A program made the translations under genes and the position numbers. This document shows positions 11,422 through 11,945 of a stretch of DNA of 39,651 bases, in pieces. The DNA comes from Escherichia phage MeretOppenheim_Bas102. The stretch lies in sequence record PQ850620.1; one strand, given 5' to 3'. The notes below the pieces were generated by a model, which did not search any database, was not told the DNA's origin, and saw only the letters and a list, made by a program, of their open reading frames with translations. Position 1 is the first letter of the stretch, and each line of letters opens with the position of its first letter.

Positions 11422-11682
11422 ATGTTTCGACTTCATTACAACAAAAGCATTAAGAATTTCACGATTCGCCGTGCTGACCGTTCAATCGTATGTGCGAGCG
11501 AGCTCCGAGCTAAGTTACCTCTTATTGGTGACACAGTTCCTCTGGCACCGAGCGTACACATCATTATTACCCGTGGTGACTTTGAGAAAGCAATAGACAA
11601 GAAACGTCCGGTTCTTAGTGTGGCAGTGACCCGCTTCCCGTTCATCCGTCTGTTACTCAAACGAATCAAGGAGGTGTTCTGA
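11422..11682 (+). CDS. 1.6: gp1.6
   Basis: 86-aa [66 protein letters not shown]... downstream of phi1.6. Confidence 0.85.
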
Positions 11683-11945
11683 TGGGCAAAGACATGGTAA
11701 ACCAACCTGCGCATTATACTTCTGGCGGGATTGAGTGCCTTGACGCTATCAGGGCTTCGATGACAGAGGAGGCATTTAAGGGCTTCCTGAAAGGTAACGT
11801 ACTTAAGTATATGTGGCGCTACGAGAAGAAATTTAATCCAACTGAGGACTTAAAGAAAGCTCAGTGGTATTTGAAGCGTCTGGAGGAAGCAAATGAAAAG
11901 GATAAATCATATGAGAACAAAGATCACCTTAAGCACTCCACCTGA
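11682..11945 (+). CDS. 1.7: short gp1.7-like protein (DUF3310-type domain; nucleotide kinase family in T7)
   Basis: 87-aa [53 protein letters not shown]...; NxPxHY and GNxxKY motifs typical of DUF3310; roughly half the 196-aa length I recall for T7 gp1.7. Confidence 0.6.
   Translation: MGKDMVNQPAHYTSGGIECLDAIRASMTEEAFKGFLKGNVLKYMWRYEKKFNPTEDLKKAQWYLKRLEEANEKDKSYENKDHLKHST

Follow-up and report, generated by a model that had tools for sequence, protein, structure and literature searches.

The DNA analysed here, referred to as the window, is the whole stretch of 39,651 nucleotides from Escherichia phage MeretOppenheim_Bas102 (PQ850620.1). It represents a T7-like (Teseptimavirus) genome, the first 25 kb of which are about 92% identical to JeanTinguely, T7 and their relatives, and it carries consensus T7 promoters. 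Two of these, at 2837-2859 and 3803-3825, lie near the start of the window, which begins in the late region, 5' of the genome end. These two promoters and the location of the ligase gene, at 9870 here versus 6475 in T7, indicate that, compared with the T7 map, the window is permuted by about 3.4 kb. The region around gene 1.7 contains the following features:

9870-10892: ligase gene.
10822-11292: HNH gene of the 1.45 type, 156 aa, HNH_3.
11277-11297: phi1.5-type promoter, an exact match to TAATACGACTCACTAAAGGAG, at a position corresponding to phi1.5 in the T7 record.
11307-11396: gene 1.5.
11394-11414, plus strand: phi1.6-type class II T7 promoter, 5' of genes 1.6 and 1.7, an exact match to the same sequence and corresponding to phi1.6 in the T7 record.
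11422-11682, plus strand: gene 1.6, with 96% nucleotide identity to T7; its stop overlaps the start of gene 1.7.
11668-11675, plus strand: Shine–Dalgarno sequence AAGGAGGT, read directly from the sequence, 6 nt 5' of the gene 1.7 ATG.
11682-11945, plus strand: gene 1.7 ORF of 87 aa with an ATG start, found by ORF scan; encodes a stand-alone DUF3310 protein whose C-terminus is chimeric.
11697-11876, plus strand: DUF3310 domain (ORF residues 6-65), placed by Pfam coordinates and BLASTP and homologous to T7 gp1.7 residues 122-184.
Ending at 12063: gene 1.8, followed by gene 2 and then gene 2.5.

The genes flanking the 87-aa ORF are homologous to T7 1.6 and 1.8. A scan for sigma-70 promoters and terminators over 10700-12400 found none, and the T7-type promoters account for transcription of the gene 1.7 region. 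Further upstream, the HNH_3 homing-endonuclease gene at 10822-11292 shares 71 nt with the 3' end of the ligase gene and occupies the site of T7 gene 1.4. Its identity is 99% to the JeanTinguely copy and 81% to phiYeO3-12 gene 1.45, and it is unrelated to the HNH gene lost 3' of gene 1.7, which is described below. None of the phage records in the collection pairs this HNH gene with the short 1.7 allele.

A separate observation concerns gp1.6, which matches the whole Pfam PF06726 profile, named 'Bladder cancer-related protein BC10', with 79-84 bits (window 11422-11682; T7 gp1.6, L001:649-906). Human BLCAP scores 95 bits on the same profile, and a BLASTP comparison of gp1.6 with BLCAP gave no pairwise similarity (E 1.8). 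PF06726 appears to combine two families that are unrelated to each other, possibly through T7 contamination of eukaryotic data, and the BC10 label should therefore not be transferred to gp1.6.

The gene 1.7 ORF had been singled out in a preliminary description of this DNA as an unusually short, 87-aa version of T7 gene 1.7 with a frame closed upstream. The ORF scan lists it between genes 1.6 and 1.8, with exactly the sequence quoted there. The frame is indeed closed, since an in-frame TAG occurs at 11616 and no ATG, GTG or TTG lies between that codon and 11682. The stop codon of gene 1.6 and the start codon of gene 1.7 share one base (TGATG, 11680-11684), an arrangement found also in T7. This overlap, together with the strong Shine–Dalgarno sequence and the T7-type promoters upstream, supports expression of the gene.

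The protein consists mainly of a DUF3310 domain. The Pfam model PF11753 (60 positions, gathering cut-off 24 bits) matches residues 6-65 over its entire length (profile positions 1-60 of 60; 87.8 bits, E 4.8e-25), and PHROG searches return families labelled 'nucleotide kinase', with phrog_236 as the best (E 6.4e-33). No NCBIfam model was found for the short protein or for T7 gp1.7. The conserved pattern of the domain, with HY near the N-terminus followed by G..N..KY..R..K and D..KA..Y, is present. Twelve residues that are invariant across 89 homologues, and across T7-type and phiA1122-type alleles, are all retained, namely H11, Y12, E18, G34, K42, Y43, R46, K50, D56, K59, A60 and Y63. A search of the rest of the window for a second DUF3310 gene found none.

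The homology to T7 gp1.7 assumed in the preliminary description is borne out by BLASTP, in which residues 122-195 of the T7 protein are 42% identical to ORF residues 6-77 (E 2e-12), and the length of 196 aa given there for the T7 protein is correct. As the match is confined to T7 residues 122-195, it is the C-terminal third of gp1.7 that is represented here, while the N-terminal 121 residues are absent. This answers the question, raised earlier, of which half had been kept. In T7 gp1.7, Pfam places DUF3310 at residues 122-184, and the 121 residues before it are Cys-rich and contain no Pfam domain. This N-terminal part matches essentially only its own family, phrog_2585 (positions 2-97), apart from a marginal hit to phrog_14146 (E 0.0017). 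It varies even among close relatives of T7, the whole protein having 196 residues in T7 itself, 179 in JeanTinguely and 113 in CQ615. A tblastn search with T7 residues 1-121 against the whole window gave no match with E < 1. The T7 gene thus resembles the present one in its slot between 1.6 and 1.8, in its start overlapping the 1.6 stop and in its homologous DUF3310 domain, and differs from it in the Cys-rich N-terminal part, which has no counterpart in the 87-aa protein.

Proteins of this size are not exceptional within the family. Among 22,453 representatives of 50%-identity clusters (E up to 0.001), DUF3310 occurs alone or with variable extensions, and free-standing versions with 70-100 aa are common. 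Across the 120 closest 90%-identity clusters, the median length is 87 aa, and 65 clusters do not exceed 90 aa. Lengths recorded at the 1.7 slot include 72 aa in KP34, 76 aa in phiA1122 and EFA-2, 83 aa in P1338 and 113 aa in CQ615. The preliminary description had allowed that its observation would lose its point if relatives commonly had a similar size; they do, and by that standard the short 1.7 is no longer surprising.

Some family members contain two or three DUF3310 stretches in tandem within one polypeptide (P0121, P0127, P0189, P0228, P0252 and P0258), and P0121 accommodates three of them in 179 aa. Such tandem arrays would be in keeping with a domain that acts in oligomeric form. An AlphaFold2 model of the 87-aa protein (mean pLDDT 77) is a helical hairpin formed by helices 29-49 and 53-81. 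Its most reliable part comprises residues 21-70, with pLDDT means of 89-95 in blocks of 10 residues, and the N-terminus and the HNH-derived tail have low confidence. A PDB sequence search revealed no solved relative, the sole match being a de novo design (E 3.5).

With regard to function, work by Tran and colleagues from 2010 and 2012 is reported to have shown that the gp1.7 kinase needs no metal ion and forms a large oligomer. Both the full-length protein and a form about 40 N-terminal residues shorter were reportedly active, and the activity was, by the same accounts, measured on forms keeping most of the Cys-rich N-terminal part. Later papers report dTMP and dGMP phosphorylation by T7 gp1.7 (PMC11897194, PMC9339283, PMC12846349), and two of them, citing Tran et al. 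2008, 2010 and 2012, are sources for its description as a metal-independent kinase that confers dideoxythymidine sensitivity (PMC11897194, PMC9339283). DUF3310 is the only segment common to the whole family and all of its conserved residues are present here, which suggests that the short form has kinase activity. The DUF3310-only protein is therefore most likely a putative dTMP/dGMP kinase, a reading whose probability is put somewhat above even. As such, it would phosphorylate dTMP and dGMP and thereby feed phage DNA synthesis, and it would probably act as an oligomer of helical-hairpin subunits.

The main alternative, though a less likely one, is that the short protein is functional without being a kinase by itself, acting either as an SaV-like, host-directed and potentially toxic early protein or only together with a partner. 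SaV of the lactococcal phages sk1 and p2 is likewise a DUF3310-containing protein and an early gene product; it is described as toxic and as determining sensitivity to AbiV (PMC8306868). It differs from the present protein in being a distant relative known for toxicity and for its interaction with AbiV, not for kinase activity (PMC8306868). Mycobacteriophage DUF3310 proteins are strongly cytotoxic on overexpression (PMC9339283), and structural neighbours of the model in BFVD are named 'SaV-like'. A fold search with the model returned generic helical hairpins, and no known kinase or nucleotide-binding fold occurs among the 60 matches listed, which would fit such a role. The 'nucleotide kinase' labels in RefSeq and PHROGs, moreover, were transferred from T7. 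Against this, no part of the characterised kinase other than DUF3310 is conserved family-wide, and the conserved positions of DUF3310 are mostly charged or polar (H, Y, E, three K, R and D), as is compatible with nucleotide or phosphate binding. Toxicity on overexpression can also coexist with kinase activity.

The origin of the short gene becomes apparent when the locus is compared with T7 and with other phages at the nucleotide level. In blastn against T7, window positions 11300-11686 match at 96.1% and positions 11954-12400 at 95.5%, with no HSP between them. Since this interval lacks DNA-level similarity to T7 gene 1.7, the 87-aa ORF is not the same allele as that of T7. Two overlapping features describe it:

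11682-11906, plus strand: phiA1122-type gene 1.7 core (codons 1-75), defined by nucleotide comparison with phiA1122 and by tblastn.
11687-11953, plus strand: segment without nucleotide similarity to T7 in blastn, read as a replaced cassette.

The allele belongs to a type found in the Yersinia pestis phage phiA1122. Codons 1-75 are identical to phiA1122 gene 1.7 at 224 of 225 nucleotides, the single difference changes no amino acid, and tblastn accordingly aligns ORF residues 1-75 at 100% identity. The phiA1122 gene encodes a 76-aa product (NP_848270), named 'protein 1.7' in GenBank AY247822 and given in RefSeq as 'nucleotide kinase' with the note 'similar to listeria phage 2389 protein'; a search of one literature collection for work on this gene found none. 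Phages YpP-Y, YpsP-G, YpP-R, R and Y carry a 1.7 identical to that of phiA1122, and that of EFA-2 is near-identical. The core differs at 1 of 225 nucleotides from phiA1122, compared with about 92% identity of the window to its best relatives overall, which indicates a recent recombinational exchange. Relative to P1338, the core shows 43 nucleotide differences, comprising 34 synonymous and 4 non-synonymous codons, a ratio that points to purifying selection.

In phiA1122, the 76-aa gene 1.7 is followed by an overlapping HNH gene and then by gene 1.8, and EFA-2 has the same layout. The HNH endonuclease is 156 aa long in phiA1122 and 151 aa in EFA-2. Its gene starts inside the last codons of 1.7 with ATGAAAAGGATAAA(T/C)CC, encoding MKRINPKTGEP, and ends inside the first codons of 1.8. 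The phiA1122 gene 1.7 and the present ORF thus share residues 1-75, the place after gene 1.6, the overlapping start and the DUF3310-only architecture. They differ in what follows, because phiA1122 1.7 stops after residue 76 and is succeeded by the intact 156-aa HNH gene, whereas the 87-aa ORF bears an 11-residue HNH-derived tail and 403 bp of the HNH gene are missing.

A similar pair of genes exists in the Klebsiella phage KP34. Its gp35 (72 aa, 'gp1.7-like') is, like the present protein, a short stand-alone DUF3310 protein (64% identity), and directly after it comes the HNH protein gp36, which is 58% identical to the phiA1122 HNH, so that the same two-gene cassette can be recognised. Unlike the phage studied here, KP34 belongs to the Slopekvirinae, its cassette lies between endonuclease VII and the RNA polymerase gene, and its HNH gene is intact. 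In KP34-like phages, the DUF3310 and HNH genes form a conserved adjacent pair (KP34, L007:1002-1683). The KP34 HNH ORF probably starts with TTG at 1201, overlapping the DUF3310 stop; the annotated start is at 1273.

The T3-like phage 536_P3 has a homologous HNH gene after a long 1.7 of the T7 type. The simplest reading of these arrangements is that the DNA 3' of 1.7 is the homing site of the HNH gene. Free-standing phage homing endonucleases are well known to cause co-conversion of the DNA next to them, and it is plausible that such co-conversion would carry the neighbouring DUF3310 allele along with the HNH gene.

The remains of the HNH gene can be located in the window as follows:

11893-11907, plus strand: 5' HNH remnant, ATG AAA AGG ATA AAT (MKRIN), identical to the 5' end of the EFA-2 HNH gene.
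11899-11907, plus strand: deletion junction AGGATAAAT, placed by blastn overlap and side-by-side reading.
11908-11945, plus strand: 3' HNH remnant, which in the 1.7 frame reads S, 11 residues and a stop; identified by comparison of HNH C-termini.
11893-12063, plus strand: 56-aa chimeric 1.8 ORF, in which the HNH start is fused in frame to 1.8; found by ORF scan, with phrog_1312 matching residues 24-56.

In blastn against phiA1122 and EFA-2, one HSP extends up to 11906 and another begins at 11899, with an overlap at 11899-11906 that reads AGGATAAA. Relatives containing the HNH gene have AGGATAAAT at the 5' site, at the start of that gene, and AGGATAAAAT at the 3' site, near its end. These sites are 403 bp apart, a distance obtained by manual counting between positions 1726 and 2129 of the EFA-2 locus, and constitute an imperfect repeat of 9-10 nt. 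As 403 equals 3 x 134 + 1 and is not a multiple of three, the reading frames are swapped at both neighbours. Gene 1.7 consequently runs into the frame of the HNH C-terminus, which adds residues 77-87 and gives 87 aa instead of 76. This source of the length had been overlooked in the first reading of the sequence, in which the last 11 residues were not recognised as coming from the deleted HNH gene. On the other side, the frame swap places the HNH start codon in frame with gene 1.8. The chimeric 1.8 product begins with MKRINH, in which the H codon spans the junction, and continues as a phiA1122-type gp1.8, which has its own start codon at 11911 (ATG). Translation of 1.8 may now be driven by the ribosome-binding site of the HNH gene, GGAGGAAG, which lies 5 nt 5' of the ATG at 11893.

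Both remnants correspond to conserved ends of the HNH family. The HNH proteins of phiA1122 and KP34 share a conserved N-terminus, (M/L)KRINPKTG, to which MRRTNPTTG in 536_P3 is related. The C-terminal motif CANCH[RQ]I[KH][ST][YF]E[EN]x[DEH][HYW] is found in KP34, 536_P3, SH1 and the cyanophage S-RIP1, and is followed by L in all of these except KP34. The ends read as follows:

KP34 gp36: starts with LKRINPKTG and finishes with CANCHRIKTYEEQEW.
536_P3 HNH: starts with MRRTNPTTG and finishes with CANCHRIKSFEEGDYL.
Citrobacter phage SH1 HNH: finishes with CANCHRIKTFEEGDHL.
Cyanophage S-RIP1 HNH: finishes with CANCHQIHTFENGHHL.

Because HNH homologues in other contexts keep both ends, the remnants in the window are HNH-derived and do not represent ancestral parts of 1.7 or 1.8. 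The possibility that the KDHLK tail was an ancestral part of 1.7 had been prompted by P1338, and it was rejected, as this motif and MKR(I/L)NPKT belong to the HNH family in unrelated genomes.

Alleles without the HNH gene also occur elsewhere, and other phages and contigs show at least three differing HNH-less junctions 3' of a phiA1122-type 1.7:

L011:146-412 (P0001, metagenomic contig): 88 aa, joined at GCAAA, with a different tail.
L005:1501-1834 (phage P1338): 83 aa, with MKRLNPKT kept and fused to 1.8.
L012:1501-1840 (P0004): 78 aa, with a different tail.

The differences in junctions and tails among these alleles suggest that the homing endonuclease has been lost repeatedly and independently.

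Taken together, the 87-aa ORF is most probably a phiA1122-type DUF3310 gene, intact, expressed and stand-alone, that arrived by exchange of a cassette from which most of the HNH gene was then deleted. In the proposed course of events, recombination replaced the stretch that starts within the opening codons of 1.7 and reaches the opening codons of 1.8. Its substitute was a cassette that comprises, in EFA-2, phiA1122 and the more remote KP34 phages, a short DUF3310 gene and an overlapping HNH homing-endonuclease gene. Afterwards, 403 bp of the HNH gene were deleted between the imperfect direct repeats AGGATAAA(A)T.

The reverse order of events is improbable. According to this view, the HNH-less arrangement would be ancestral, 87 aa would be the original length, and the HNH gene would be a later arrival in the phiA1122 lineage. 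Intergenic and overlap regions are indeed invaded by homing endonuclease genes, and HNH-less alleles are present in several lineages (P1338, L011, L012). The window, however, keeps both HNH ends, since MKRIN corresponds to the (M/L)KRINPKTG N-terminus and KSYENKDHL to the C-terminal motif. Both ends are conserved in the KP34 HNH, and a cyanophage HNH has the C-terminal motif as well; in the stretches compared, no annotated 1.8 follows the HNH gene in KP34 or in the cyanophage. The differing junctions among HNH-less alleles are likewise what would be expected of independent deletions. The conserved HNH motifs thus argue for deletion as the direction of change rather than insertion.

It is also very improbable that the 403-bp gap is an assembly artefact, with a short repeat having collapsed and the true phage possessing a 76-aa 1.7 and an HNH gene. 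The exact 87-aa protein has no match in the protein and assembly collection and the exact deletion junction has none in IMG/VR, so that this allele has no twin on record, and the junction falls within an imperfect repeat of 9-10 nt. A 9-nt repeat, however, is far too short to collapse an assembly, and comparable deletions with other junctions are found in independent assemblies and in one cultured phage. As for the two options offered by the preliminary description, a minimal form is a fair account, but a truncated or reduced T7 gene is not. Decay of a T7-type 196-aa 1.7 into a pseudogene with a lost 5' half is hardly credible, for although the ORF is 109 aa shorter than gp1.7 and lacks its N-terminal 121 residues, no T7 1.7 nucleotide similarity exists over 11687-11953 between flanks about 96% identical, the overlap of the start with the 1.6 stop is exactly that of T7 with no 5' debris, the DUF3310 profile is covered in full, the core is near-identical to the 76-aa phiA1122 gene and under purifying selection, and no other part of the window encodes the N-terminal domain of the T7 protein.

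A short DUF3310-only 1.7 is already known, being annotated in the GenBank and RefSeq records of phiA1122. The new detail here is the 403-bp homing-endonuclease deletion scar, which explains both the 87-aa length and the chimeric start of 1.8. Natural DUF3310-only proteins are convenient minimal constructs for determining which part of gp1.7 carries the kinase and which part is sensed by Avs5 and AbiV. Many other phages would serve equally well as sources of such constructs, and in this respect the finding is an ordinary one.

A connection to antiviral defence can also be considered. T7 gp1.7 was recently reported to activate the Avs5 defence protein of E. fergusonii (EfAvs5; PMC11897194). With gp1.7 activating Avs5 and SaV determining AbiV sensitivity, DUF3310 proteins emerge as recurrent targets of sensing in abortive infection. 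A broader proposal, which must be regarded as doubtful, holds that the DUF3310 core of about 75 residues is a complete metal-independent dTMP/dGMP kinase, and that the frequent swapping of 1.7 alleles among T7-like phages occurs through co-conversion with the linked HNH gene under selection by defence systems that recognise long and short alleles differently, such as EfAvs5 and AbiV. If this were true, the DUF3310 core would be one of the smallest nucleotide-kinase subunits known. A difference between long and short alleles in sensing by defence systems is the only route by which the finding would gain wider interest.

The value of the analysis lies in correct annotation of this phage. Gene 1.7 should be described as encoding an intact phiA1122-type DUF3310 protein, a putative nucleotide kinase, and not a truncated T7 1.7, and the last 11 residues of 1.7 and the first 6 of the 1.8 ORF should be annotated as scars of a lost homing endonuclease.
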